Sequence record: NC_135728.1 | Source of the DNA: a phage | Length of the DNA stretch: 64,000 bases | Reading direction: 5' to 3' (one strand) | Shown: positions 4,246 to 45,014 of the stretch, in pieces | Numbering within the stretch: position 1 is the first letter of the stretch | Layout of the letters: every line of letters starts with the position of its first letter | Notes under the pieces: model-generated | The model's input: only the letters and a program-made list of their open reading frames with translations | Told to the model about the DNA's origin: nothing | The model's database searches: none | Made by a program: the position numbers and the translations under genes

Positions 4246-5229
4246 ATGATGACAAAGTTAACTCTTGAGCAAATTTTAACACTAAAGCAACAGGGATACA
4301 CTAATAGACAAATTGCTCGTGAATTTTTAGGCCGTGAGTCACGTGAGAGCTGGATCCGACTACAGCTTAAACGTGCACAAGAGAATATGTCAGAGATTGT
4401 AGGAGAAGCAACGGAGCGCTTCCTTGAAGAACACAAAGGTGCTAAAGTTTGGGTGTATGATACAGAGACATCCCCAACAAACGGCTGGTTCTTTGGGCAC
4501 TATAAGACCAACATTCAAACCTGTGGTATTGAAGTTATGCCCTATATGCTAACTTTCGCAGGTAAGTGGTTAGACAGCCCTAGTGTGGTTGACTGCGCTC
4601 TTCCAGATTACAAAATGTGGGATGAAGATATTCACAATGATCTCGAATTGATTCAGGATTTGTGGTATTATCTGGATAAATGCGATGTCGCAGTAGCCCA
4701 CAATTCAGGTTTTGACTGCGGGTGGGCCAACCAACGATTTGCATTTCACGGGTTGCCTCCAACAAGCCCCTACAAAGAGGTTGACACCCTTAAAATGATC
4801 AAGAAGGCATTCCGTTTGAATGCAAACACTTTGGAGTATGCATGCAAATACTTCCAACTGGCCAGACAGAAACTGATTGATCACACATTTGAAATGTGGA
4901 TCAAGTGTGTCCATGGCGATCTTGAGGCATTTAAACAGATGCGGGAGTATAATGTTGGTGATATCCTGTCTCTGGAAGGACTGTATTTGCTGGCTCGCCC
5001 GTTTGCTAAGCAGCACCCAAACATGTCATTGTACTACCAGGACGAGGAGCCAAAGGTTCGTTGCCCACGCTGTGGTGGAGAACACTTTCACGAGGAAGAA
5101 GCTTTGGCATATACTCAGCTGAGTGCATTTAAAACATACCGCTGCGAAGGTTGTGGATCTGTTGTTCGTGACCGTAACAACATCCGTACCAGAGAAGAAA
5201 TGAAAAACACCCTGATTCAGATAATCTAA
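4246..5229 (+). CDS. DEDD-family 3'-5' exonuclease with C-terminal zinc ribbon
   Basis: VYDTETS (Exo I), VAHNSGFD (Exo II), VGDILSLEGLY (Exo III-like), then CPRCGG...CEGCG. Confidence 0.5.
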   Translation: MMTKLTLEQILTLKQQGYTNRQIAREFLGRESRESWIRLQLKRAQENMSEIVGEATERFLEEHKGAKVWVYDTETSPTNGWFFGHYKTNIQTCGIEVMPYMLTFAGKWLDSPSVVDCALPDYKMWDEDIHNDLELIQDLWYYLDKCDVAVAHNSGFDCGWANQRFAFHGLPPTSPYKEVDTLKMIKKAFRLNANTLEYACKYFQLARQKLIDHTFEMWIKCVHGDLEAFKQMREYNVGDILSLEGLYLLARPFAKQHPNMSLYYQDEEPKVRCPRCGGEHFHEEEALAYTQLSAFKTYRCEGCGSVVRDRNNIRTREEMKNTLIQII

Positions 5230-34490: not shown

Positions 34491-34910
34491 TTATAATGAT
34501 TCGTATATTTCAAAAATCCGATTTGCCAGGTCGTTACGGTAGCGGAATTTTTCCTCACGTTTGATCATCAGATCTTTAAAGCCATATTCTTTAAGCACTT
34601 CATTAACTTTATGGCGGCATACCTTCATATTATCTTGTGCGTCACCAATAAACTTGTTGCTATGGTGCATGGCTTTAATTTCTTCTTCCAGGACCAGGGC
34701 AACTATGCGGACCGGATCAAGCTGATAGGCGGTAACATCAATGCGGCATTGTAAACGGCTTTTTACGTCTGCCACCGGATATACTGCAACCTCTTCCCCG
34801 TCAACATTGACAATAATTAGTTTACCATCGATTTCGAATCCTTTCGCCGCCGGACCGTGACAAAAAGCGTTATCAAAGCTATATGCCGGATTATTAGATT
34901 TAATGTTCAT
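34491..34910 (-). CDS. hypothetical protein
   Basis: 139-aa ORF with agagg RBS and upstream promoter. Confidence 0.5.
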   Translation of the reverse strand: MNIKSNNPAYSFDNAFCHGPAAKGFEIDGKLIIVNVDGEEVAVYPVADVKSRLQCRIDVTAYQLDPVRIVALVLEEEIKAMHHSNKFIGDAQDNMKVCRHKVNEVLKEYGFKDLMIKREEKFRYRNDLANRIFEIYESL

Positions 34911-34959
34911 GGTGTTTTTACCTCTTAGTTAATTTTCTTACAACTTCCCTTCAAAAAAG

Positions 34960-34988
34960 AATATAGCAAAACTGCCGATCCTTGTCAA
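34960..34988 (-). promoter_or_regulatory. sigma70-like promoter TTGACA-N17-TATATT with palindrome over -35
   Basis: Minus-strand hexamers read directly; ATCCTTGGTTGACAAGGAT palindrome spans the -35. Confidence 0.5.
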
Positions 34989-35055
34989 CCAAGGATAGCA
35001 TAATTTTTATGTGATCAAGGGGCTTTATTGCCCCCTGATCGTGCAACTTGTTGTA

Positions 35056-35319
35056 TTATTTGTTACTCATCCAGTTTTCCCAGGCTGCCTGATAATCTGC
35101 CTCACTGCGGCGGATCTCTTCTTGCTCTTCAAGTCGGATCTCTTCTTCCAGGTACCCCAAGATATCGGCTTTCTTGGTCTGGCGTAACATCCAATCATCT
35201 TTTTTACGGGTAAAGATCTTATATGCTTTCTCGCAAACCTCTTTTTTGCTACCTTTTTGGACTTCAAGAACTTTGTAGGCCATGTACTGAACTAGTTTAA
35301 GCTGATCAAGACGTTTCAT
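35056..35319 (-). CDS. hypothetical protein
   Basis: 87-aa ORF with agagg RBS. Confidence 0.45.
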   Translation of the reverse strand: MKRLDQLKLVQYMAYKVLEVQKGSKKEVCEKAYKIFTRKKDDWMLRQTKKADILGYLEEEIRLEEQEEIRRSEADYQAAWENWMSNK

Positions 35320-35379
35320 GATGTTTACCTCTTTGTGTGGTTCTGATTAGTGGGCCTCCCGGCCCGTGTCATTATCTTA

Positions 35380-35652
35380 TTACTTACGGCGGCAGAATTC
35401 AAGCGTTTTTAATTGATAATCTTCCTCAGCCTGGAGTACAACCGCCTCGATCATTTCGTTGGCATTGTTGAAGCCATACCCTTTAGCGAACTCGTCCGCA
35501 CCACCTTCGTGATCATGTTCTGCGTTCATCGCTTCCACAAAATGGAATTCCAAATTGTTGAGGTAGGGGCTTGATGTGCCGTCTTCTTTTTCGATGAGAT
35601 CCCAAATAGCATTAAAACGTGATTCGACTTCTTGATTAATCCAGCTTGACAT
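35380..35652 (-). CDS. hypothetical acidic protein
   Basis: 90-aa ORF; upstream promoter and UTR hairpin. Confidence 0.45.
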   Translation of the reverse strand: MSSWINQEVESRFNAIWDLIEKEDGTSSPYLNNLEFHFVEAMNAEHDHEGGADEFAKGYGFNNANEMIEAVVLQAEEDYQLKTLEFCRRK

Positions 35653-35694
35653 AGTGTTTTCCTCTCTTCTGGTTGTTGTGTGGGCACCTTTGCC

Positions 35695-35730
35695 CCTTCA
35701 AGATAAATGTTACCCCACCCCCTGGCAGAT
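35695..35730 (-). promoter_or_regulatory. promoter TTGACA-N17-TAACAT plus 5' UTR hairpin
   Basis: Minus-strand TTGACATCTGCCAGGGGGTGGGGTAACAT followed by GGGCA-AAGG-TGCCC hairpin and RBS. Confidence 0.4.
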
Positions 35731-35870
35731 GTCAACGGTTTTTATAGTTCTTATATGACAGGCAGGCCTGGTGATTGTCTCCCCCTGTTCCCAAGTGCCG
35801 CCCGTTTAATAAGAATAGCAAAAGGGGCCGAACAAGTCAACCCCAAAATCAGTACCAAAACACTTTTTAT

Positions 35871-36182
35871 TTATACGGTCCGGTCATTGGCCTTTGTCCA
35901 GGACCTGGCGATCCGTTTCCCAGTCACCTGGAACGGAGACTGCATTGTGTGTAGTGAATCCAGCGTAAGGGAGGACCGTTTACGGCGTATCTTCAGGATC
36001 GCCAATGTATTGTCCATCTCACGGCCAGGTCCTGGGCGGTATGGTGTGCCTCCAGCGTTAAGGTTGATGATCTCATGTATTGAGATCCGGCGTTGTTTTG
36101 CTTCCGCATCTTTGAAGATAGCCAGTGGAGGCGCTATGCGTTGCCGATACCAATCTAAAACGGTTGGCGTAATAGCGATCAT
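35871..36182 (-). CDS. hypothetical protein
   Basis: 103-aa ORF whose start overlaps the stop of 36179..36370 (ATGA), consistent with the minus-strand cluster. Confidence 0.4.
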   Translation of the reverse strand: MIAITPTVLDWYRQRIAPPLAIFKDAEAKQRRISIHEIINLNAGGTPYRPGPGREMDNTLAILKIRRKRSSLTLDSLHTMQSPFQVTGKRIARSWTKANDRTV

Positions 36183-36370
36183 ATTTTACCCCCTATGTAG
36201 TCCGGTCGGTTTTTCTCTGTCATGCGTTTAAGCAATTCTTGCATATGGCCTATAGCTTGTAGCGTGTCTTCTTCCAGGCTTGAATCTACATAATCAGGAT
36301 CGTCTATCACCTTTTTATGATTATGATAACGCAGTACCGCCAATACCTTTCTAACTTGTTCAGTATTCAT
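36179..36370 (-). CDS. hypothetical protein
   Basis: 63-aa ORF. Confidence 0.4.
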   Translation of the reverse strand: MNTEQVRKVLAVLRYHNHKKVIDDPDYVDSSLEEDTLQAIGHMQELLKRMTEKNRPDYIGGKI

Positions 36371-36386
36371 TTTACATCGCCCTTAC

Positions 36387-36677
36387 TTATTGTTGGCGGT
36401 TTACGTAAGCTTTACCGTTTACCGTCATCGGCAAATCTTCCAGGCCTGGATCTTCCTTAAGGTCGCGAGCAAGTTCACCGCACCGGATACCCTCGAATCC
36501 GTAGTACTCTGTTGTACCGTCATTAAAAGTTTTAGTGGCAAGGCATAAGCGATAAGTAACCCCGATTCGATTGACGGCATGAATATCCGTTAGATTAACC
36601 TCTTTTGCCAGCTCATTAGCCATTGCAGGCGCACTAAGTCCAACAACCAGGGCAACCACTGCGATCATCTTTTTCAT
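36387..36677 (-). CDS. secreted protein with signal peptide
   Basis: N-terminus MKKMIAVVALVVGLSAPAMA is a classical signal peptide. Confidence 0.5.
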   Translation of the reverse strand: MKKMIAVVALVVGLSAPAMANELAKEVNLTDIHAVNRIGVTYRLCLATKTFNDGTTEYYGFEGIRCGELARDLKEDPGLEDLPMTVNGKAYVNRQQ

Positions 36678-36768
36678 TGTGTCTATCCTCTTTCTGCTAC
36701 GTTTAAGGCGGCGGTAACCGCCTGTTTATGATTTGTTGGTTAATTTTCGGGTATCGGTATAAATTAAA

Positions 36769-36984
36769 CTATGCTGTACGCTCAACTATAACAACGGTTT
36801 GGGGGATCTCCCCTTCCACCACTAGTAAGGCCTTTTTCTGCGTGATAGATATCTTTACCCGTTGCAGCGTGGCGGTGAAGTCTTTCATTTCGTCACGCGG
36901 TGTTTTAGTGCAGTACCAGATCTCAGGCTTGCCGATCTGTAAGTTGCGTAAAAATTCTGTTTTGCCCGTTTTGTTAGTGATCAT
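36769..36984 (-). CDS. hypothetical protein
   Basis: 71-aa ORF. Confidence 0.4.
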   Translation of the reverse strand: MITNKTGKTEFLRNLQIGKPEIWYCTKTPRDEMKDFTATLQRVKISITQKKALLVVEGEIPQTVVIVERTA

Positions 36985-36996
36985 TTGCCAACCTCA

Positions 36997-37098
36997 CCCG
37001 ATACCGTTGGAAGACAAGATCATATTAGACATGGTTGCAATCAGGCCAATACCCAGGGCAATAATCAAGATCACTGCATCGATTAATTTCTGTTTCAT
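36997..37098 (-). CDS. small hydrophobic peptide (about 33 aa)
   Basis: Below ORF-track cutoff; translation MKQKLIDAVILIIALGIGLIATMSNMILSSNGIG; coordinates approximate. Confidence 0.3.
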
Positions 37099-37175
37099 GG
37101 TGTTTATTCTCTTCTGTTAGTAACCTTATTCATGGGGCCGCTACCACAGCCCCAGGGTAAGGCGGCTATGTGCTT

Positions 37176-37421
37176 TTAGTGTTTCATTCCAACCATCGCG
37201 GCACGGATCGCCGTAGTGCTGTACTTGAAGCCGTCCGGGGTCTTATCTTGTCCGGTTAGCTCCAGAAAAAGCATCATATCCCGCGCCGCATCATTACGAT
37301 TAGCATTAGCGTTAATAAAGCCTTGGGCCAACCGGTACAATGACTCATCGTTATTAATCCAAAGGCTTACATTCCAATGAGTTTTGTTTTTGTAACCGTT
37401 ATAACCTTTATTGCTTTTCAT
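37176..37421 (-). CDS. hypothetical protein
   Basis: 81-aa ORF with agaggtaaaca RBS. Confidence 0.45.
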   Translation of the reverse strand: MKSNKGYNGYKNKTHWNVSLWINNDESLYRLAQGFINANANRNDAARDMMLFLELTGQDKTPDGFKYSTTAIRAAMVGMKH

Positions 37422-37513
37422 GGTGTTTACCTCTTCTTTGTTCCGGGGTGGCGGATCATTCTACCACCTTATGTATTATGCTTTGTTAGATGGTTGTTTG
37501 TTGTCAAACTATT

Positions 37514-37693
37514 TTAACGATAATCATCGTACGCTTTATTAACCTGGCGAATATAACATTCAAAAGCTAGATCAATAGATTCATATTCACGGATATACTC
37601 ACCATAGGAAACCACATACATTTCTATAGCTTCCTCATATGCGAGGAGAATAGAATCTAAGCCTACGATCTCGGTCTTTGCAATAATAGCCAT
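37514..37693 (-). CDS. hypothetical protein (59 aa)
   Basis: Just below ORF-track cutoff; ATG after agagga RBS; translation begins MAIIAKTEIVGLDSILLAYEE; coordinates approximate. Confidence 0.4.
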   Translation of the reverse strand: MAIIAKTEIVGLDSILLAYEEAIEMYVVSYGEYIREYESIDLAFECYIRQVNKAYDDYR

Positions 37694-37768
37694 GATTTTT
37701 ATCCTCTTTGTGGTTGGTGGGGCTTGTTGCTCCCTTTGATTTATATATTACAGTTTTATATGGTCATG

Positions 37769-38002
37769 TCAACTATTTTCAAAAAATTTTTCTGCTGTGA
37801 TATTCTTCCCGGTAGGGTTCGCTACTTTCAAAATTCTATCATGCACCGGACGCCCGAAAGAATAAGATCCGTATACAGTAAACCAATAATCACCGTCAGG
37901 CTGTACTATTACCGCCGCATATGGTACGCCTTTTTCGTTTTTGCTGACAAAATAGATCACATTGCCATTAATAGCCTCAGCGCGTTTAATTTGTTCCATC
38001 AT
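37769..38002 (-). CDS. hypothetical protein
   Basis: 77-aa ORF with agagg RBS. Confidence 0.45.
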   Translation of the reverse strand: MMEQIKRAEAINGNVIYFVSKNEKGVPYAAVIVQPDGDYWFTVYGSYSFGRPVHDRILKVANPTGKNITAEKFFENS

Positions 38003-38056
38003 GATGATTTACCTCTCTTTATTTTCATAATTGGGGCCTTTTCGGCCCCGCCAGGT

Positions 38057-38341
38057 TTATTTATTGATAGCGTGCAGCGGGAAAGCTACGCCAGGTTGAT
38101 AAATAACCTTTACAACCTCATCAGGACAAAAGAAGTTGCAGAACTCACCGCAGTAGGCCTCATCCTCTTTCAACTCTTCATTAACATACTCAAAAAAGTA
38201 GTCGATGCTTGGATAATCCTGGCCGGGATTATAGTCAACCATCGTTAATAATAACTCTTGATCATTCCGTAGGATATGCATACCCGCTTTTAAGTATTTT
38301 GCTTCCATTTCTACTACATCGCCAGCGGTAACAATAGCCAT
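38057..38341 (-). CDS. hypothetical protein
   Basis: 94-aa ORF; MAIVTAGDV N-terminus resembles 37514..37693. Confidence 0.45.
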   Translation of the reverse strand: MAIVTAGDVVEMEAKYLKAGMHILRNDQELLLTMVDYNPGQDYPSIDYFFEYVNEELKEDEAYCGEFCNFFCPDEVVKVIYQPGVAFPLHAINK

Positions 38342-38543
38342 GATTTTAACTCCTATCTATCTGGTCAATGATTGGGGGCCTCCCCCCTCGACAACTCTTA
38401 TTATCCATATTGTCGGGAATGATGCAAGTACTTCTTTAAAAATTTTTTAAGCGCCTTAGGGCCGTTGTAACGTCAAAACAATAAAGGCTATGCGATTGCA
38501 TAGCCTGCTAGTGTTTAGGTCGCTGTAGGCCCTGCCTGGGGCC

Positions 38544-38894
38544 TTATTTTGCATTCTTGCCTGTATTGCCGCCACGGTACCAGCGTTTGCGGTGAAAATG
38601 GTAATAATCCCCCTCGGCATTAAACATCAGATGATTTTCAATAACCAGCTTACGAAGGTGGGCCGGATCTTGTTCCATTCTTGCCAGATTCCGGCGGCTG
38701 TTACGTAAACGGATAAATTCCATATTCAGGCCGTTGATTGCAGCATGGATGTTAAAGTAACCACCTTTGAGACGTTCACGCATGGCGTTAAGCTCAACAC
38801 AATATACAGATTTCTCACAAATCAAGGTATTAGCTAGGGCGCGGACCTGGGCAAGGGGGTTAAGCTCATTAAGGTAATATAATTTAACTTTCAT
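38544..38894 (-). CDS. hypothetical protein
   Basis: 116-aa ORF. Confidence 0.45.
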   Translation of the reverse strand: MKVKLYYLNELNPLAQVRALANTLICEKSVYCVELNAMRERLKGGYFNIHAAINGLNMEFIRLRNSRRNLARMEQDPAHLRKLVIENHLMFNAEGDYYHFHRKRWYRGGNTGKNAK

Positions 38895-38911
38895 AAAATC
38901 ACCTGTTGAAA

Positions 38912-39220
38912 TTAGTTTGAGAAAACATCGTTCACAATAGCGATCACAATGCCGCTCACCTTGTCACGGTCAACAATGCACAAATCACCATAGATCATGT
39001 GGTAGTCTGGATGATCTTTCACAGAATAGTCAATAAGTGTTTTCTTGTCATCCAGCTTCGTAACTTCCATTCTCATAACGATATGAGAATCATCAAAGGC
39101 ATTATTCCGAAAAGTCATAGCCTGACCGCCAGGGCACCCAGTGATCTCCACTTCCACACCATCTACGATCTGACCATCAAAGAAATAAAGATTATTAGCC
39201 TGGATAAACATGTCTATCAC
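38912..39220 (-). CDS. hypothetical protein
   Basis: 102-aa ORF downstream of copy 1 of the repeated promoter element. Confidence 0.45.
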   Translation of the reverse strand: MIDMFIQANNLYFFDGQIVDGVEVEITGCPGGQAMTFRNNAFDDSHIVMRMEVTKLDDKKTLIDYSVKDHPDYHMIYGDLCIVDRDKVSGIVIAIVNDVFSN

Positions 39221-39257
39221 TCCTTGTTAACTGCGTGGTATTTTAACAGGGTTTAAA

Positions 39258-39303
39258 TTTACTTTATTGATGGCCCTGGAGTCAAGGCCATCTAAAAATA
39301 AAT
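39258..39303 (-). promoter_or_regulatory. repeated palindromic promoter element, copy 1
   Basis: Minus strand AGATGGCCTTGACTCCAGGGCCATCAATAAAGTAAAT: TTGACT-N18-TAAATT with GATGGCC...GGCCATC palindrome. Confidence 0.45.
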
Positions 39304-39304
39304 T

Positions 39305-39505
39305 TTACAGGCCTACAATCTCTTTGATTCGTTTAACCGCTGCCTCAGCGCCTTGGGGGTAAAAATTATGGTAACCAATCACGCGAGTGATACTAATCGC
39401 CGTTTGATGATCTTCATAGTCGCCCTTGAAGATTTCTTGACCGTCAATCAGCACGGCAATTTTTTCTTCTTTTTTGAAGTTAATAACGCGGATATTGTTG
39501 CTCAT
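39305..39505 (-). CDS. hypothetical protein
   Basis: 66-aa ORF with aggaga RBS. Confidence 0.45.
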   Translation of the reverse strand: MSNNIRVINFKKEEKIAVLIDGQEIFKGDYEDHQTAISITRVIGYHNFYPQGAEAAVKRIKEIVGL

Positions 39506-39654
39506 TTTGTTTCTCCTTTCTGGTTTTTGTGGTGGTGGGGATTAGCTCCCCCCGTTGATTGTTATTATCCACATTCCGGACCGGATTGCAACACCCCGGA
39601 AGAAAATTTTTTTTTTTTTTTAAAGATAGGCCCCCATGATCGGGGGCCGTTATC

Positions 39655-39771
39655 AGTTACTTACAGCGATAAAATACATCCCTACGCCTAACAATATTTC
39701 AAGGGCGATGATCTCAAGCCATACCATAGCACGGCGCGCCTTATCGGTGCGGGGCTTATCCTTGGTTGTCA
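39655..39771 (-). CDS. small hydrophobic peptide (about 38 aa)
   Basis: Below ORF-track cutoff; strong RBS ggagggaagggggag; translation MTTKDKPRTDKARRAMVWLEIIALEILLGVGMYFIAVSN; coordinates approximate. Confidence 0.3.
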
Positions 39772-39792
39772 TCGTCTCCCCCTTCCCTCCTG

Positions 39793-40014
39793 TTAGCAGT
39801 TACGTGGTTTGCAATGGCCCCCAGGAGTATTATCACCACGCACATTGCAAGAAAAATTATCTCTGTCGTTGTTCGATCCATTGTTATAAAATTCCTCAAG
39901 ATCAGGCCTGAAAATAAAGCGTTCGTTATTGAATCCGTCACGCCAGGCGGCTGGCTTCAAATCTTCACTAAAGGGATTAATTAACGTGGCATTATTTAAA
40001 CGGTTGGCCCACAT
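39793..40014 (-). CDS. hypothetical protein
   Basis: ORF track 39793..40032; ATG at 40014 after gagaggaa RBS is the likelier start. Confidence 0.4.
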   Translation of the reverse strand: MWANRLNNATLINPFSEDLKPAAWRDGFNNERFIFRPDLEEFYNNGSNNDRDNFSCNVRGDNTPGGHCKPRNC

Positions 40015-40396
40015 ATTTTCTATTCCTCTCAAATAGGCGATCCGCCTCAGTTAAACATATCTCATGGGCTTGATCTCTGGTTTTAGCCTCATCAAAAACC
40101 TGTTGTGCCAGGCTGCAGCGTAGGGAGACTGGAAGATCGCTATAATAGGCGTTGACAAACGTTTGAGCGTCGTACAGGTCTGAAAATACTTTACCCTTTC
40201 TATTATTCCCCTTGTCAACAATTGCAAGGATAACCAATACAATAGTTGCGACTACCCCCAGGAAAATAGATATAATAAACCATAAAAAGGCGGATCTTCC
40301 CATCTTGCCAGCGATCCAGGCGTTAAACAAGGCAACCAATACAGCCAAAATAATAAATTCCATTCTATGTACCTCTTTTACAGTTCTGATTAACAA
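39992..40396 (-). CDS. membrane protein
   Basis: 134 aa with two TM-like segments (FIILAVLVALFNAWIAG, FLWFIISIFLGVVATIVLVILAIV). Confidence 0.5.
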   Translation of the reverse strand: MLIRTVKEVHRMEFIILAVLVALFNAWIAGKMGRSAFLWFIISIFLGVVATIVLVILAIVDKGNNRKGKVFSDLYDAQTFVNAYYSDLPVSLRCSLAQQVFDEAKTRDQAHEICLTEADRLFERNRKYVGQPFK

Positions 40397-40427
40397 TAAG
40401 GCGGCAAATATGCCGCCTGTTACCTGA

Positions 40428-40808
40428 TTAAAAATTATCGCCGTAAATCTTTCCGCTTTCTACCCATACCACCACGCGAGGCATACTATCCCACACGTCT
40501 TGTTTTAGATTGAGCGCGTGCAATTCTTCGGTGGTGCTCATACCGGGCACGGGCTGATTGTATACTGCAAAACGACCGCCTGCATAATCATAGGCCAGGG
40601 TTAAATCACACTGGATCATCTTTTTGATCATGGCATTAAGCATGGCGTTAGCCGCATATTGATCACGTTTTAAAGGCAACTCTTTGATTAGTTTGCGATA
40701 GTTTTCGATATGGTCGCACACTGTTTCACGTGGAAGATCTTTCATATCCTCGCGAAAGGTAACCAGGTTAAACATAACGGTGTCAATGGCTTTAGTGGTG
40801 CTTTTCAT
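40428..40808 (-). CDS. hypothetical protein
   Basis: 126-aa ORF with agagga RBS. Confidence 0.5.
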   Translation of the reverse strand: MKSTTKAIDTVMFNLVTFREDMKDLPRETVCDHIENYRKLIKELPLKRDQYAANAMLNAMIKKMIQCDLTLAYDYAGGRFAVYNQPVPGMSTTEELHALNLKQDVWDSMPRVVVWVESGKIYGDNF

Positions 40809-40896
40809 GATGTTTTCCTCTTTGTTTTGTGTGGGGCAAACGTCTTGCCCCTTGAGTTTTAATATAGCAGGTTTTTAGGTTATTGCAACACTTTAT

Positions 40897-41520
40897 TTAT
40901 GAAAAAGTCATCTCGCCATATTCATCCACATCAAACCGCCAATCATTGGCCTCGATAAGGCCGATCAGGTTTTCGGTAGTAAATTGTTCAAGATAAGCTT
41001 GCTCCAGGTCTACGTAAACCTTGCGGGATAGCTCCCGTACCGTCTCGGTGATCAGCTCTTCCAGCTCTTCAACTTTGTCCTCTTGCTTGGTGGTCAGGTC
41101 TAGCCAATTAGTATCGATGCACCCTCCTATTGTGTTTTCGTGGTGATAATGGCTAAACGGGATACGTTCAACACTGGCTGATAGTTCGCCATCGTGCATT
41201 GTGCCGAACAAGTGACGAATTGATCGGAACTTGGTCAGGGCCTTTACTTTACGCAAGAATTTTTCTAAATCCACGTTTTCCGCACTGATTGACGCGCCGT
41301 CACCCTGGCACCAAAAGCCTGACCAATGTACTTCGGTATCTTCAAGGCCATACTCTGGAAAAACATATTCTTTATAGTATTCAATTACACTTTCTGCAAA
41401 AAAGTTATCCCCGCTGTGTTCTTCTCTTTCGCGTACCATTTCAATGGCTTTTTCTTTTTGTTCGTCGGTCAGCACGTCGAAAGATAAATTGTAACCTGTG
41501 GTAATGTTAACGGTGGTCAT
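40897..41520 (-). CDS. hypothetical acidic protein
   Basis: 207-aa ORF with aggag RBS, downstream of promoter and UTR hairpin. Confidence 0.5.
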   Translation of the reverse strand: MTTVNITTGYNLSFDVLTDEQKEKAIEMVREREEHSGDNFFAESVIEYYKEYVFPEYGLEDTEVHWSGFWCQGDGASISAENVDLEKFLRKVKALTKFRSIRHLFGTMHDGELSASVERIPFSHYHHENTIGGCIDTNWLDLTTKQEDKVEELEELITETVRELSRKVYVDLEQAYLEQFTTENLIGLIEANDWRFDVDEYGEMTFS

Positions 41521-41578
41521 GATATTTTCTCCTGTTTTCTTTGTTAGTGGCGGGAAGTTTTCCCGCCTATGTTTTTTA

Positions 41579-41606
41579 ATTATACTTATTGAGATTTACT
41601 TGTCAA
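41579..41606 (-). promoter_or_regulatory. sigma70-like promoter TTGACA-N16-TATAAT
   Basis: Minus-strand consensus hexamers; transcript leader contains GGCGGGAAAACTTCCCGCC hairpin (plus coords about 41548-41566). Confidence 0.55.
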
Positions 41607-41856
41607 CACTATTTTTTAAATTATTGTGGCGCAAAATGTTTAAAATCTTCTCAACGTCATCAACACGGCGGCAATTTTTAAACGCTACCAATTGCCCCAT
41701 GATTTTAATCACTGGGCGGCCTTGCCAGTGCCCCTGAAGAAAGCGCGCCTTGACTTTATCGGTGGAACTATCACGCCACCAAATAGCCTTGTTGTTGCAG
41801 TAGTAAAAATTATTCAGGATAACATCAACTTTATCAAAATTTTTTAATTTACGCAT
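41596..41856 (-). CDS. hypothetical protein
   Basis: 86-aa ORF. Confidence 0.45.
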   Translation of the reverse strand: MRKLKNFDKVDVILNNFYYCNNKAIWWRDSSTDKVKARFLQGHWQGRPVIKIMGQLVAFKNCRRVDDVEKILNILRHNNLKNSVDK

Positions 41857-41894
41857 GGCGTTTACTCCTTTCTCTCTTTGATGTGGTTAGTATA

Positions 41895-41925
41895 GCTAAC
41901 CTGTTGACGATGTCAATGATATTTT
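41895..41925 (-). promoter_or_regulatory. sigma70-like promoter TTGACA-N16-TATACT
   Basis: Minus-strand hexamers read directly upstream of 41596..41856. Confidence 0.45.
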
Positions 41926-42035
41926 TAACGCCACAAAACGGCCCTGGGCGATGTTTTCAGGTTAAAGGGGGCGATTGCATAGGTGGGGGGCCTTTTTGGC
42001 ACTTATAGGGCCAACCAGGGGCGCTATTCGTAGGG

Positions 42036-42068
42036 TAGAAATAAAAAGCCCCGCACGATGGCGGGGCG
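42036..42068 (-). terminator. rho-independent terminator (minus strand)
   Basis: Minus-strand GCCCCGCC-ATCGT-GCGGGGC hairpin then TTTTTATTTCT after stop of 42076..42297. Confidence 0.6.
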
Positions 42069-42075
42069 TTGGTTG

Positions 42076-42297
42076 TTAGTTGCCTTTGTGGCGGTATCGT
42101 TCCGCCTGCCGTTCACGTTCCAAAAGGAGGCCCGGCAATTTACGATCATAATGATTTCGCCAGATCTTCCCAAATCTTTTTGGCTTATTCAGTTTATTGT
42201 TACGCTGGCGGCGTTCCGGCAGCTCTTCGGAATCATGAGATCGCTTTACAATTTTCTCAAAATTAATCTTCATATATTCCCCCCTTGCTAACTTCAA
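42076..42297 (-). CDS. hypothetical basic protein
   Basis: 73-aa ORF. Confidence 0.4.
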   Translation of the reverse strand: MKLARGEYMKINFEKIVKRSHDSEELPERRQRNNKLNKPKRFGKIWRNHYDRKLPGLLLERERQAERYRHKGN

Positions 42298-42616
42298 TAT
42301 TGGCCTGAATAGCCCGGATACGGCGCTTTATAACTTCCTGATCTGTGTGATCGTATCCCCAAAAGTCCACAATTTTTGCGCCCCCTGCCTCCAAGCGGTA
42401 TAGTGTTTCCTGCATCTTGTAAGCCGGGATCGGTCGCGGTGTTACTTGGTCACCTTCTTTATTTTTATACTTTATAATATAATCTTCGTTATCGTTGAAT
42501 GTCCAAAATGGATATTCTGCAAGGGCGGTACTTCCTCTTTCCTTTTTATCCTGGATCTTGTTTACAATTAAAGCCGTAGCAATAGCGCCAATAATAAAAC
42601 TAGCCCCGCTGATCAT
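42263..42616 (-). CDS. membrane-anchored protein
   Basis: 117 aa with N-terminal TM (ISGASFIIGAIATALIV). Confidence 0.45.
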   Translation of the reverse strand: MISGASFIIGAIATALIVNKIQDKKERGSTALAEYPFWTFNDNEDYIIKYKNKEGDQVTPRPIPAYKMQETLYRLEAGGAKIVDFWGYDHTDQEVIKRRIRAIQANIEVSKGGIYED

Positions 42617-42690
42617 GTACTTTCTCCTTTCAAGGTGTTAATAAATTATCTTTATAGATGGCCCTGCAGCCAGGACCACCGAAAAAATAA

Positions 42691-42936
42691 CTATTTCACA
42701 ATGCCTACAAAACAGATCCCGCCTTCACCTATATAAGCAATATCGGTCACTTTGTAGTTGGTCAAGATCTGTTTATTTAGATCATTAATAAAATCGGTCA
42801 TTGCGTTGGTGTAGTTGTCTTCCGTATCTAAGGCATAATCCCAGGTGTAAACCTTTTTACGTCCGAAGCCTTTTACCATGATACGGGCGCTTTTGGTGTT
42901 GGTAGGGGCATAATATTTGGTGATTAGTGCTGCCAT
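42691..42936 (-). CDS. hypothetical protein
   Basis: 81-aa ORF downstream of copy 2 of the repeated promoter element. Confidence 0.45.
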   Translation of the reverse strand: MAALITKYYAPTNTKSARIMVKGFGRKKVYTWDYALDTEDNYTNAMTDFINDLNKQILTNYKVTDIAYIGEGGICFVGIVK

Positions 42937-42979
42937 GGTTTTAACTCCTATGCATTAGTTCAGTGTTAACAGTATAAAG

Positions 42980-43026
42980 TTTACTTTATTGATGGCCCTG
43001 GTGTCAAGGCCATCTAAAAATAAACT
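42980..43026 (-). promoter_or_regulatory. repeated palindromic promoter element, copy 2
   Basis: Minus strand AGATGGCCTTGACACCAGGGCCATCAATAAAGTAAACT: TTGACA-N18-TAAACT; identical to copy 3. Confidence 0.45.
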
Positions 43027-43367
43027 TACTCGTTTTCTTCCAGCTCCGCAAGCTCTTCTTTTGCTTCTTCCAACTCTGTCTGCAATTCCTGATATTCTTC
43101 ATCGTCCTCAATATCCAGGCTGTCGATGTAGTCGCTAAATCCGCAGCGGTAAGCGATAGGATCTAGCTCCTTGAGGATACGCGACGGAAGAAAAGAAATG
43201 TTTCCGATCATAATTTCGCCGTAGATCTCGTCCAACCATTCATCATAGTTTTCGTCGTACTTGTCCTCGTCGATTTCAAAGTTATCGATCTTATTCTCAA
43301 GGTCTGCGATCTGTTTTTTCAGGGCAGCGATCTGAATAGCTTTTTCTGCGGCGGTCATAGTAGTCAT
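43026..43367 (-). CDS. hypothetical acidic coiled-coil protein
   Basis: 113-aa ORF with aggaga RBS, downstream of promoter and UTR hairpin. Confidence 0.5.
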   Translation of the reverse strand: MTTMTAAEKAIQIAALKKQIADLENKIDNFEIDEDKYDENYDEWLDEIYGEIMIGNISFLPSRILKELDPIAYRCGFSDYIDSLDIEDDEEYQELQTELEEAKEELAELEENE

Positions 43368-43418
43368 GGTGTTTTTCTCCTTTTGTGTGTTCTGGGAAGT
43401 TTTCCCGTTTATGTGTTT

Positions 43419-43446
43419 AGTATACTGATCTAAGTTAGCTTGTCAA
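43419..43446 (-). promoter_or_regulatory. sigma70-like promoter TTGACA-N16-TATACT
   Basis: Minus-strand hexamers; leader contains CGGGAAAACTTCCCAG hairpin. Confidence 0.5.
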
Positions 43447-43566
43447 TTAAAAGTTTAAGAAAAATTTTGCGACACTGTTGGCGCTACCCATCAACATTTG
43501 CGCCAGGATGTAACCAATGATGCAAACGATAATAGTTACCTTTGTGTGCTGGCGTGTAGTACTCAT
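43447..43566 (-). CDS. small hydrophobic peptide (about 39 aa)
   Basis: Below ORF-track cutoff; RBS aaggggg; translation MSTTRQHTKVTIIVCIIGYILAQMLMGSANSVAKFFLNF; coordinates approximate. Confidence 0.3.
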   Translation of the reverse strand: MSTTRQHTKVTIIVCIIGYILAQMLMGSANSVAKFFLNF

Positions 43567-43600
43567 CTTCAAGCCCCCTTTTTAGCTTAACTGGGATTAG

Positions 43601-43647
43601 TTTACTTTATTGATGGCCCTGGTGTCAAGGCCATCTAAAAATAAACT
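43601..43647 (-). promoter_or_regulatory. repeated palindromic promoter element, copy 3
   Basis: Same 47-bp sequence as copy 2. Confidence 0.45.
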
Positions 43648-44042
43648 TAGTAAGTTTTCAGTACTTTCCCGTCCAGTCTGTCAAGCTGGATCTCGATAGC
43701 TGCAGAAAACCTATTATAAACCACATCGCCCATGGAGTCCAGCCAATCTATGACGTTATACACCTGCTCTTTATTCTTGCAAGTCCGGATCCGTTTCATT
43801 ACGTAAGACGGATCAATATTAGTGCTCTCGTTGTTGTGGTCATGCGCCTGGCCTGCTGCATTAGTTATAGATTTTACAACCACCTGAAAGGGCTTTAAGG
43901 TGCCTTTTGCGTTCATCTCACGCGCTTTTGCGGCGCGGTTGTTATATGTTACACAACGGCGGCAAATGTTGACCAAATGCATATCAATAATTTTTTCATC
44001 GTTTGCCAGTTCGTTCATGATGCGGCGTACGTTCTTATTCAT
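43647..44042 (-). CDS. hypothetical protein
   Basis: 131-aa ORF with aggaaa RBS. Confidence 0.5.
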   Translation of the reverse strand: MNKNVRRIMNELANDEKIIDMHLVNICRRCVTYNNRAAKAREMNAKGTLKPFQVVVKSITNAAGQAHDHNNESTNIDPSYVMKRIRTCKNKEQVYNVIDWLDSMGDVVYNRFSAAIEIQLDRLDGKVLKTY

Positions 44043-44090
44043 GATCTTTTTCCTTTGTGTTGGCGGGAAACATTCCCGCCTTTTGTGCCT

Positions 44091-44118
44091 AGTTTACTTG
44101 AATTTTGCAGCGTGTCAA
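44091..44118 (-). promoter_or_regulatory. sigma70-like promoter TTGACA-N16-TAAACT
   Basis: Minus-strand hexamers; leader contains GGCGGGAATGTTTCCCGCC hairpin (about 44062-44080). Confidence 0.5.
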
Positions 44119-44124
44119 TGATTT

Positions 44125-44523
44125 TTATTCGTGGGCGCATGTTACAATGTGCTTTTTATAGCCTAGATGATCAGCAAGTGCCGACAAAAACTCTTCTTCA
44201 TAGATCCAGCCGTTGGCAGTGATCCCCATAGCATTTAATGCGCTCTCAAGTGCTGCGTTAGCTTTATCATAACCGTATCCGCTGGCCTTGCCGCCAGTAT
44301 AACCGTACTTATTGTTCTTGCTGTCGTGCATCCAAAAGACGCAATAATGAGTATTACCGCTGGAGGCGGCATAATACCGGATCTCAGCTACTTCGTGCAA
44401 ATTATTGTCATCGTCCAGGCCCACCAGATTATAAGCCTTATAAAATCCACGATCACGGCGGCAGTTCTTGACATCAGAAAAAGAAAAGTCCGCATTATCA
44501 AAATTAAAGGTGGTGGTTTTCAT
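44125..44523 (-). CDS. hypothetical protein
   Basis: 132-aa ORF with agagga RBS. Confidence 0.5.
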   Translation of the reverse strand: MKTTTFNFDNADFSFSDVKNCRRDRGFYKAYNLVGLDDDNNLHEVAEIRYYAASSGNTHYCVFWMHDSKNNKYGYTGGKASGYGYDKANAALESALNAMGITANGWIYEEEFLSALADHLGYKKHIVTCAHE

Positions 44524-44587
44524 GATTTTATCCTCTTAGTGTCTTTTGTGCTTTTAGTGTATTTGGTGTCGTACTATATGTCAATAC

Positions 44588-44785
44588 TTATTTTTTATTA
44601 AACCAGTGGTTGATCTGGCCTTTTGTCAGGGCGCAACGATTAAGCTGTTGCCGGGTATAGCTCTGACCACGACGGAATTTATAAAGGCCTTGCCCGTTGT
44701 TGATGGTTACATCCACCCGGCAAATCACTTGATCCGTGACCACCTGGCGAGTGTTGCGACGTACTTTGATTCCGTAGGCGTTCAT
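44588..44785 (-). CDS. hypothetical basic protein
   Basis: 65-aa ORF with agagga RBS. Confidence 0.45.
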   Translation of the reverse strand: MNAYGIKVRRNTRQVVTDQVICRVDVTINNGQGLYKFRRGQSYTRQQLNRCALTKGQINHWFNKK

Positions 44786-44849
44786 GATTTTTTATCCTCT
44801 TTGTTAATTAGTGCGGTGTTGTTCACCTTGCGATAATAAGAATAACAAG

Positions 44850-44885
44850 AACTGCCCGAGCTGTCAACCATTATGTAAAATTATT
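44850..44885 (-). promoter_or_regulatory. sigma70-like promoter TTGACA-N17-TATTCT
   Basis: Minus-strand hexamers upstream of 44588..44785 with AT-rich upstream tract. Confidence 0.4.
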
Positions 44886-45014
44886 TTTTGGGTAGAATTC
44901 TCCAGCCGCCACCCCTGCCAGGTTTGCAAGCTTTCACTCTCCCACCTGGTCAGTTAGGTCCTGCTAGGGCTGGCCCCGCCAGGTTGCAGCAGTTGACGCA
45001 CTATGTTAGAAAAA

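Follow-up and report, generated by a model that had tools for sequence, protein, structure and literature searches.

The DNA analysed here, hereafter the window, is a stretch of 64,000 nucleotides from a Vequintavirus, an rV5-like E. coli myophage. The identity to phage Murica was 97.6% over window positions 40800-44600 and 98.7% over 34800-45000, and more than 100 related genomes were found to match the region at 90-97%. From ~33 kb to 62 kb the genes are small, lie on the minus strand and are hypothetical in all records that we inspected; no plus-strand genes were found within 34-62 kb. The rV5 genome paper describes the region as a single long leftward unit with many sigma70-type promoters, and lists 33 promoters and 20 terminators (PMC3606486). 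The leader hairpins reported here are absent from the text of that paper and from its supplementary table (PMC3606486). In the literature that could be searched, these leader hairpins are not described for phages of the rV5, phi92 or PBECO4 type.

The minus-strand gene at 40897..41520 encodes a protein of 207 amino acids and is preceded by a promoter with a perfect 12/12 match to the consensus (TTGACA-16-TATAAT, 41579..41606). Between this promoter and the gene is a hairpin, GGCGGGAA-AAC-TTCCCGCC (41549..41567, minus strand), with a stem of 8 bp and a stability of -14.6 kcal/mol. It begins 11 nt past TATAAT and lies 29 nt ahead of the ATG at 41520. The same stem of 8 bp with a different loop, GGCGGGAA-TGT-TTCCCGCC, is found at 44062..44080 on the minus strand, 10 nt past the TAAACT of the promoter TTGACA-16-TAAACT (44091-44118) and upstream of the ATG at 44042 (gene 43647..44042). 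The cassette of gene 43026..43367 (promoter TTGACA-16-TATACT at 43419-43446, minus strand) contains GGGAA-AAC-TTCCC at 43394..43406, a stem of 5 bp only, 12 nt past TATACT and upstream of the ATG at 43367. A 13-nt core, GGGAAAACTTCCC, which includes the loop, is identical in this copy (43394-43406) and in the copy at 41.5 kb. Finally, GGGCA-AAGG-TGCCC (35682..35695, minus strand) is positioned 11 nt past the TAACAT of the promoter TTGACA-17-TAACAT (35707-35735) and upstream of the ATG at 35652 (gene 35380..35652).

A previous inspection of the window, the sequence-only reading, had described the first three hairpins as near-identical and the fourth as related to them. Near-identity was found for the stems of the copies at 41.5 and 44.1 kb and for the core of the copy at 43.4 kb, but not for the full stem of the latter. 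The hairpin upstream of 35380..35652 shares the architecture of the others, but does not resemble them beyond it. The full 8+8 palindrome is present in two copies in the window against 0.00 expected from 100 shuffles, and with 3 mismatches allowed still only 0.09 copies are expected by chance. The two 8-bp hairpins folded with z-scores of -4.9 and -3.7, and the two short ones with -1.9 and -1.4.

We scanned the window for promoter-like sites, each with a Shine-Dalgarno sequence (SD), an ATG and an ORF downstream. Five more leaders were found to have a hairpin at the same place, all on the minus strand: 44839, 40861, 39564, 37745, and 37478, each leader being named after the coordinate at which its -10 ends in the window. 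In leader 40861 (promoter TTGCAA-16-TATATT at 40861-40888, gene 40428..40808) the hairpin is GGGGCAA-GACGT-TTGCCCC at 40833..40851, and in leader 39564 (promoter TTGCAA-16-GATAAT at 39564-39591, gene 39305..39505) it is GGGGGGAGCTAATCCCCACC at 39534..39553. Leader 37745 (promoter TTGACA-16-TAATAT at 37745-37772, gene 37514..37693) has a bulged hairpin, GGGAGC-AACAA-GCCCC, at 37719..37734, while leader 37478 (promoter at 37478-37507, gene 37176..37421) contains GGTGGTAGAATGATCCGCCACC at 37447..37468. The hairpin of leader 44839 (promoter TTGACA-17-TATTCT at 44839-44867, gene 44588..44785) is weak, GGTG-AACAA-CACC at 44815..44827.

At least nine of the ~19 early minus-strand cassettes between 34 and 45 kb carry a hairpin that starts 9-12 nt past the -10. 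With a strict criterion of a perfect stem the count was 7 of 19 early leaders, and the chance rate for such a hairpin start is 0.035-0.039 per 4-nt window. About half of the early leaders have no hairpin; about ten other promoter cassettes are also located in 34-45 kb, and all genes downstream are hypothetical. A 39-aa hydrophobic ORF, MSTTRQHTKVTIIVCIIGYILAQMLMGSANSVAKFFLNF (window 43447-43566, minus strand), has its own promoter (-10 end at 43599) and an SD. This ORF is unannotated in Murica, the closest genome, is a 120-nt CDS in several relatives and is termed a putative membrane protein in HMD-6.

The nine hairpin cassettes are ~85-95 nt long and have a common order: sigma70 promoter, 9-12 nt of A-rich sequence, GC hairpin, CA-rich spacer, strong SD and ATG. 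The predicted promoters match TTGACA/TATAAT at 9-12 of 12 positions, with spacers of 16-18 nt, mostly 16. The hairpins have 4-9 bp, a G-rich 5' arm, a variable loop of 3-5 nt and stabilities from -5 to -15 kcal/mol. The stems found at the same position differ (GGCGGGAA, GGGGCAA, GGGGGGAG, GGGAGC, GGTGGT, GGGCA, and GGTG), and GGGGAG, GGGGGC and GGTGG are also among those at this place in the cassette. In the minimum free energy (MFE) folds of the nine leaders the hairpin was the sole structure, leaving SD and AUG unpaired, with z-scores of -4.9 to -1.2. The spacer from hairpin to SD is composed of 61% A, 28% C, 7.5% G, and 3% U, compared to a U content of 24% in the leaders without a hairpin, and on the gene strand A makes up 58% of the 9-12 nt ahead of the hairpin. 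Based on architecture, folding, spacer composition and promoter spacing, the hairpin leaders are a distinct class of cassette and not random GC stems.

In the nine leaders and their relatives the ratio of G to C was 193:46 in the 5' halves of the hairpins and 61:200 in the 3' halves. Terminators of the same region occur in both polarities, unlike the G-first leader hairpins. This polarity is uninformative on the strand that acts, since it is equal on both strands. In the record of phage Alma (OV101294), GGCGGGAA hairpins at 2251-2272 and 4763-4787 are annotated as gene-strand terminators, without a U-tract there. These labels are probably a software call needing correction.

We compared the homologous 10-kb region of nine vequintaviruses and one IMG/VR contig, along with regions from the Justusliebigvirus KKE7M (Stephanstirmvirinae), an Avunavirus fragment and the jumbo phage PBECO4. 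A search for related loci with the 207-aa protein returned only 2 vequintavirus contigs, and INPHARED records were used instead. Among GenBank records, 17-22 named as Campylobacter phage (MG0656xx) are ~93-97% identical to E. coli vequintaviruses across the region; the one that we opened is marked UNVERIFIED, and the host label of these records looks doubtful.

The window and its relatives provided 103 distinct leaders with promoters matching the consensus at 10 or more of 12 positions. A hairpin was present in 50 of them, and 40 of these 50 start 9-12 nt past the -10, with a mode of 10-11. A hairpin start at 9-12 nt was found in 0.8% of shuffled leaders, compared to 40/103 of the real ones.

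The hairpins were found to vary between relatives in ways that keep the pairing. In leader 44091 the loop is flipped from TGT to ACA in one contig, and the inner stem is replaced in MiataMamis to give GGCGG-TTGA-TAC-TCAG-CCGCC with 9 bp. Leader 40861 has a paired insertion, GGCGGGCGA..TTGCCCGCC, in relatives, and several one-sided changes in this 40.8-kb hairpin all lead to G-U pairs. Leader 39564 exists in two forms, GGGGA-GCTAA-TCCCC and GGGGAG-ACA-CTCCCC, and the hairpin of leader 37745 outlasts a deletion of 4 nt as GGGG-CAAG-CCCC. In HMD-6 the hairpin of leader 37478 is replaced by an unrelated one, GGCGGCA-ATGA-TGCCGCC. When each variant was compared with an equal number of random substitutions, with the window sequence as reference and the variants being mutually related, the observed pairing energy was -182.5 kcal/mol against a simulated mean of -129.6, and 0 of 2000 simulations reached it. 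Hairpin pairing is kept by selection across orthologues, and the suggestion that a recurrent structure occupies the leaders between the -10 and the ribosome binding site is confirmed.

Selection on the pairing is not absolute. The 41.5-kb hairpin was found with four different single mismatches in different lineages, which points to a relaxed constraint over its full 8 bp. The shared spacing could in part come from paralogy and gene conversion. RNAalifold did not detect double-sided covariation in the 40.8-kb hairpin, because MAFFT misplaces the indels. A hand count of non-Watson-Crick pairs gave ~9-10 G-U against 6-7 A-C, which is not decisive on the acting strand; the energies of 42 variants favoured the sense strand in 23 cases and the antisense strand in 10.

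Cassettes of the same build were also found outside the vequintaviruses. KKE7M, which is phi92-like, has at least nine, among them three copies of GGCGGGAAA-TGG-TTTCCCGCC. In PBECO4, a leader hairpin is present in 5 of 12 cassettes, where GGGAA-NNN-TTCCC cores recur and the start region, ACATC, is conserved. Three phage lineages retain the GGCGGGAA/TTCCCGCC stem. Proteins homologous to the 207-aa early protein (40897-41520, minus strand) are encoded by PBECO4-like jumbo coliphages, at 58-60% identity, and by jumbo phages of Klebsiella, Erwinia and Pectobacterium, at 33-46%; one record names the protein a putative YeeU-like antitoxin. These homologues indicate that early ORFans are common to very different phage groups.

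In IMG/VR, the search for GGCGGGAANNNTTCCCGCC returned 115 contigs, and is uninformative because the hairpin is generic and the contigs are mostly unrelated. The search for the promoter together with GGCGGGAA gave a count near the estimated chance level, with the full hairpin in only 9 of 128 matches. The same architecture of promoter and leader hairpin is repeated in unrelated high-GC actinophage contigs (L150, which is Mycobacterium phage Thonko, L164, L172, L178, L181, L139, and L201). There the cassette consists of TTGACA...GGTAACTT or GGTAATGT, ~11 nt, GGCGGG-AANNA-CCCGCC, a short spacer, an SD and an ATG, and is apparently of independent origin. Six AT-rich IMG/VR contigs of 134-169 kb (L145, L190, L191, L194, L197, and L202) carry a repeated element, TTGACAAA...TGTATAATAGGGGTGGTTGGGCGGGAATAGATAAT, which is an extended -10 promoter with a conserved G-rich start and very AT-rich DNA downstream of it, and has no hairpin.

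Breaks in homology between the window and its relatives coincide with cassettes. The breakpoints are at 37407-37512, 41894/41911 and 43037/43599, the last of these inside a 51-nt repeat, and five different homology breakpoints fall inside the 37478 cassette or within 14 nt of it. The 51-nt direct repeat, TAAGTTTATTTTTAGATGGCCTTGACACCAGGGCCATCAATAAAGTAAACT, is present in two exact, promoter-bearing copies on the minus strand (42978..43028 and 43599..43649), which belong to the cassette type with a hairpin-less leader and are recombination partners of each other. Around the -35 of each copy is an inverted repeat, ATGGCC..GGCCAT, a placement that is classic for promoter-early stem-loop (PeSL) cassettes, known from the T4-like phages RB49/phi1, PST and nt-1 (PMC2839356, PMC4122927). 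In ECP26, 43038-43598 (~560 nt) is missing and one hybrid copy of the 51-nt repeat is left, and the leader of the 207-aa gene is a chimera with the 5' flank of the 43419 leader. One breakpoint falls inside the shared GGGAAAACTTCCC core. MiataMamis and one IMG/VR contig have a 590-nt insertion that extends from the TTGACA of the 41889 promoter to a second promoter copy. KKE7M, although from another subfamily, has 93% identity to window 42974-43447. The shared segment is a module bounded by two promoters, comprising a single gene and the promoter, leader and hairpin that belong to it, and ending at the next promoter.

These breakpoints have to be read with care. Most intergenic DNA in this region is cassette, so breakpoints at gene boundaries would fall there anyway; such boundaries are also expected because intact genes are what survives. 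The clearest recombination events are at promoter repeats without a leader hairpin, namely the 51-nt repeat and the TTGACA-flanked insertion. Events of these kinds have been reported for PeSL cassettes (PMC2839356, PMC4122927), and the cassette as a whole appears to behave like a shuffling module of the PeSL type.

Different stems are found at the same position and pairing is preserved through changes in sequence, which argues for a role of structure over sequence. Transcription in E. coli usually starts 6-8 nt past the -10. If host RNA polymerase does so here, promoter geometry would place the stem ~2-6 nt from the 5' end of the mRNA. A stem this close to the end would hinder 5'-end-dependent decay, that is, removal of pyrophosphate by RppH and 5'-monophosphate-assisted entry of RNase E. 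U-poor sequence offers few sites that fit the RNase E consensus, and the U-poor spacer would in this way contribute to longer-lived early messages. RppH is blocked when a stem-loop sits at the 5' terminus, and unpaired 5' nucleotides are required by RppH as well as by RNase E, with a minimum of 2 and a preference for 3 or more (PMC8833179). As 2-6 nt are predicted to be unpaired, protection is possibly partial, or nil at a gap of 11-12 nt. In T4, the Srd protein stimulates RNase E. A probable Srd homologue is encoded by rV5 (PMC3606486), and would put a premium on protected phage mRNAs. Simple internal stem-loops are poor obstacles to RNase E scanning (PMC11194081), and the leaders of ompA and papA are the classic precedents for a 5' stem-loop (PMC3997798).

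The fixed promoter distance, the pairing, the open and U-poor leader, the literature on RppH and RNase E, and the Srd homologue lead us to favour 5'-end protection. We put at about 0.45 the probability of the reading in which a repeated early-gene cassette carries the hairpin as a transcribed stem-loop near the 5' end of the mRNA and the hairpin protects that end. Since the cassettes are similar to each other, they would also serve as sites of homologous recombination by which ORFan genes are inserted, deleted and swapped, as is the case for PeSL in T4-like phages.

The hairpin could also act in termination, on either strand. As an attenuator of the PeSL type it would terminate or dampen read-through from the strong promoter of the gene upstream, leaving each ORFan to be expressed chiefly from the promoter of its own cassette. 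One PeSL stem-loop of RB49/phi1 cut lacZ expression as much as rrnB T1 (PMC2839356), the upstream stop codon adjoins the -35 of the 41.5-, 44.1- and 43.4-kb cassettes with no separate terminator, and two of the hairpins are annotated as terminators in the Alma record. However, no gene-strand U-tract follows any of the nine hairpins, their tails being ACACAA or ACTAACAA, whereas canonical T-tract terminators are used nearby on the same strand (42067-42048, 40418-40399, and 39648-39629). Furthermore, the hairpin is at a constant distance from the -10 of the downstream promoter and not from the upstream stop codon, and a terminator located past a promoter is unable to shield that promoter from occlusion. 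We consider attenuation unlikely. Termination on the plus strand, where the complement of the A-rich start and the -10 comes after the hairpin and the two together would stop antisense transcripts just before the early promoter, is less probable still. Four of the nine hairpins (41549, 44062, 40833, and 43393) are terminator-like on the plus strand by a lax criterion, the high A content ahead of the hairpin would supply the T-tail, and promoter-like sites are present on the plus strand of the region. The other five lack a T-tail even by the lax criterion, though, and the T-runs are broken beside the stem, as in TATGTTTT and GTTTATGT. There are also no plus-strand genes within 34-62 kb, the G-U pairs of several variants are C-A mismatches on the plus strand, and this reading leaves the CA-rich, U-poor gene-strand spacer unexplained.

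A role in the DNA only, with the inverted repeats as hot spots of recombination or targets in hairpin or cruciform form that drive the shuffling of cassettes and are homogenised by gene conversion, would fit the breakpoints and the chimeric leader at cassettes, including the one within the GGGAAAACTTCCC core. It would also fit one crossover that in RB49 was placed in a PeSL loop (PMC2839356), and the wobble count singles out neither strand. Yet the clearest events occurred at promoter repeats without a leader hairpin, breakpoints at gene boundaries are expected regardless with intact genes as the survivors, and neither the fixed distance to the -10 nor the U-poor spacer is explained; we regard such a role as rather unlikely. 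The hairpin might instead be an RNA or DNA operator bound by a phage or host factor (an N-like antiterminator, a repressor of translation or one of early shut-off) or be a pause hairpin that couples transcription and translation. The conservation of the GGCGGGAA/TTCCCGCC stem in three lineages points in this direction, as does the location of the palindromes at ~+4 to +22, a place at which elongation could be blocked by a bound protein. However, the stems vary by cassette, as do the loops (AAC, TGT, ACA, CAA, TAC, TGG, and TAG), which argues against one sequence-specific binding protein, and a boxA, an Rfam family or an occluded SD was not found in these leaders; we think this improbable. It is equally improbable that promoter, hairpin and leader form a mobile regulatory module of three lineages of large coliphages (rV5-like, phi92-like and PBECO4-like jumbo phages) with a stem-loop read by a dedicated factor. 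Such a factor may be a structure-specific recombination or nicking activity that moves ORFan cassettes from phage to phage, or an RNA-binding switch that sets the timing of early expression, and the hairpin may then be a functional address tag and not a passive 5' cap.

The sequence-only reading had proposed an RNase processing site, a translational operator or an antiterminator target, and we obtained no specific support for any of them. RNase III needs longer stems than the 4-9 bp seen here, and a site for this enzyme was rejected because the stems are too short. A scan against Rfam over 33-48 kb, with E values of up to 1, gave two unrelated sub-threshold matches only, none of them at the hairpins. 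Sequestration of the SD or a thermosensor was rejected since SD and AUG are unpaired in the MFE folds of the nine leaders, which also leaves an operator without backing. As for antitermination, no boxA-like element is present, the search of the nine leaders giving a single match with 3 mismatches (44801-44812), and the loops are variable and not boxB-like. There is no need to invoke hairpin promoters of the N4 type, given that canonical sigma70 promoters are found ahead of the hairpins.

The genomes of large virulent coliphages contain small early ORFans by the dozen. Many of these probably serve host take-over or anti-defence, and outside T4 there is little description of how they are expressed and exchanged. 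With the cassette, true early genes can be recognised along with their start positions, even when they are small and lack annotation, and terminator labels in deposited genomes can be corrected; the cassette also suggests a route by which early genes move between unrelated phage lineages. It further supplies short natural 5' leaders with which rules for the protection of mRNA 5' ends could be tested in E. coli, and which could be used in expression design. Should the hairpin turn out not to be a stabiliser, its fixed spot 10-11 nt past the -10 would call for another explanation.

Among described systems, the PeSL cassette of T4-like phages comes closest. Both are short intergenic units of a near-consensus sigma70 early promoter, a stem-loop of the GGGG...CCCC type, an SD and a start codon, both recur in many copies where small ORFans are concentrated, and in both the ends of indels and replacements between close relatives sit in the cassettes. 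With respect to promoter, GC-rich stem-loop, copy number and shuffling, the window cassettes agree with PeSL. They differ in lineage, being found here in Vequintavirinae, Stephanstirmvirinae and Asteriusvirus, and in the position of the stem-loop. In PeSL it is mostly in the gap from the -35 to the -10 or over the -10, upstream of the start, and is described as a terminator or attenuator. In the window it is 9-12 nt past the -10, inside the predicted transcript of its own promoter and without a U-tract in the sense strand. Position upstream of the start site, as in PeSL, is not seen for the leader hairpins, 40 of 50 of which start at 9-12 nt, and the gene-strand U-tract of an intrinsic terminator was found in 0 of 9.

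Bacterial promoter-coupled terminators also combine a stem-loop and a promoter in one compact intergenic element between tandem genes, but termination is there ~10 bp upstream of the start with the stem over the -35 (bioRxiv 10.64898/2026.08.19.745784). The window stem is downstream of the predicted start and has no U-tract. Nut sites of the lambda type likewise have a small hairpin in the early leader past a strong promoter; here, however, there is no boxA, the loops are not GNRA-like pentaloops, the stems are variable and each gene has its own promoter.

The late-gene (phi10) leader of T7 has a stem-loop at the transcript start followed by an unstructured A-rich enhancer and a strong SD, and belongs to highly expressed messages. 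The window leaders share with it the stem-loop near the predicted start, the A-rich unstructured stretch and the strong SD, but the T7 leader has a T7 RNA polymerase promoter and one conserved sequence, while host sigma70 promoters and many stems are found here. The 5'-terminal stem-loops of ompA and papA are reportedly mRNA stabilisers, a finding ascribed to Emory, Bouvet and Belasco in 1992 (PMC3997798). They have a hairpin at the extreme 5' end that acts independently of its sequence, with an unstructured leader and an accessible ribosome binding site downstream, a pattern that the window leaders are predicted to share. The difference is that the 5' end is placed here by promoter geometry, and that the 2-6 unpaired nt are at or above the limit for RppH and RNase E (PMC8833179). 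By analogy, the hairpin leader would work most like a 5' leader of the ompA type or the T7 phi10 type.
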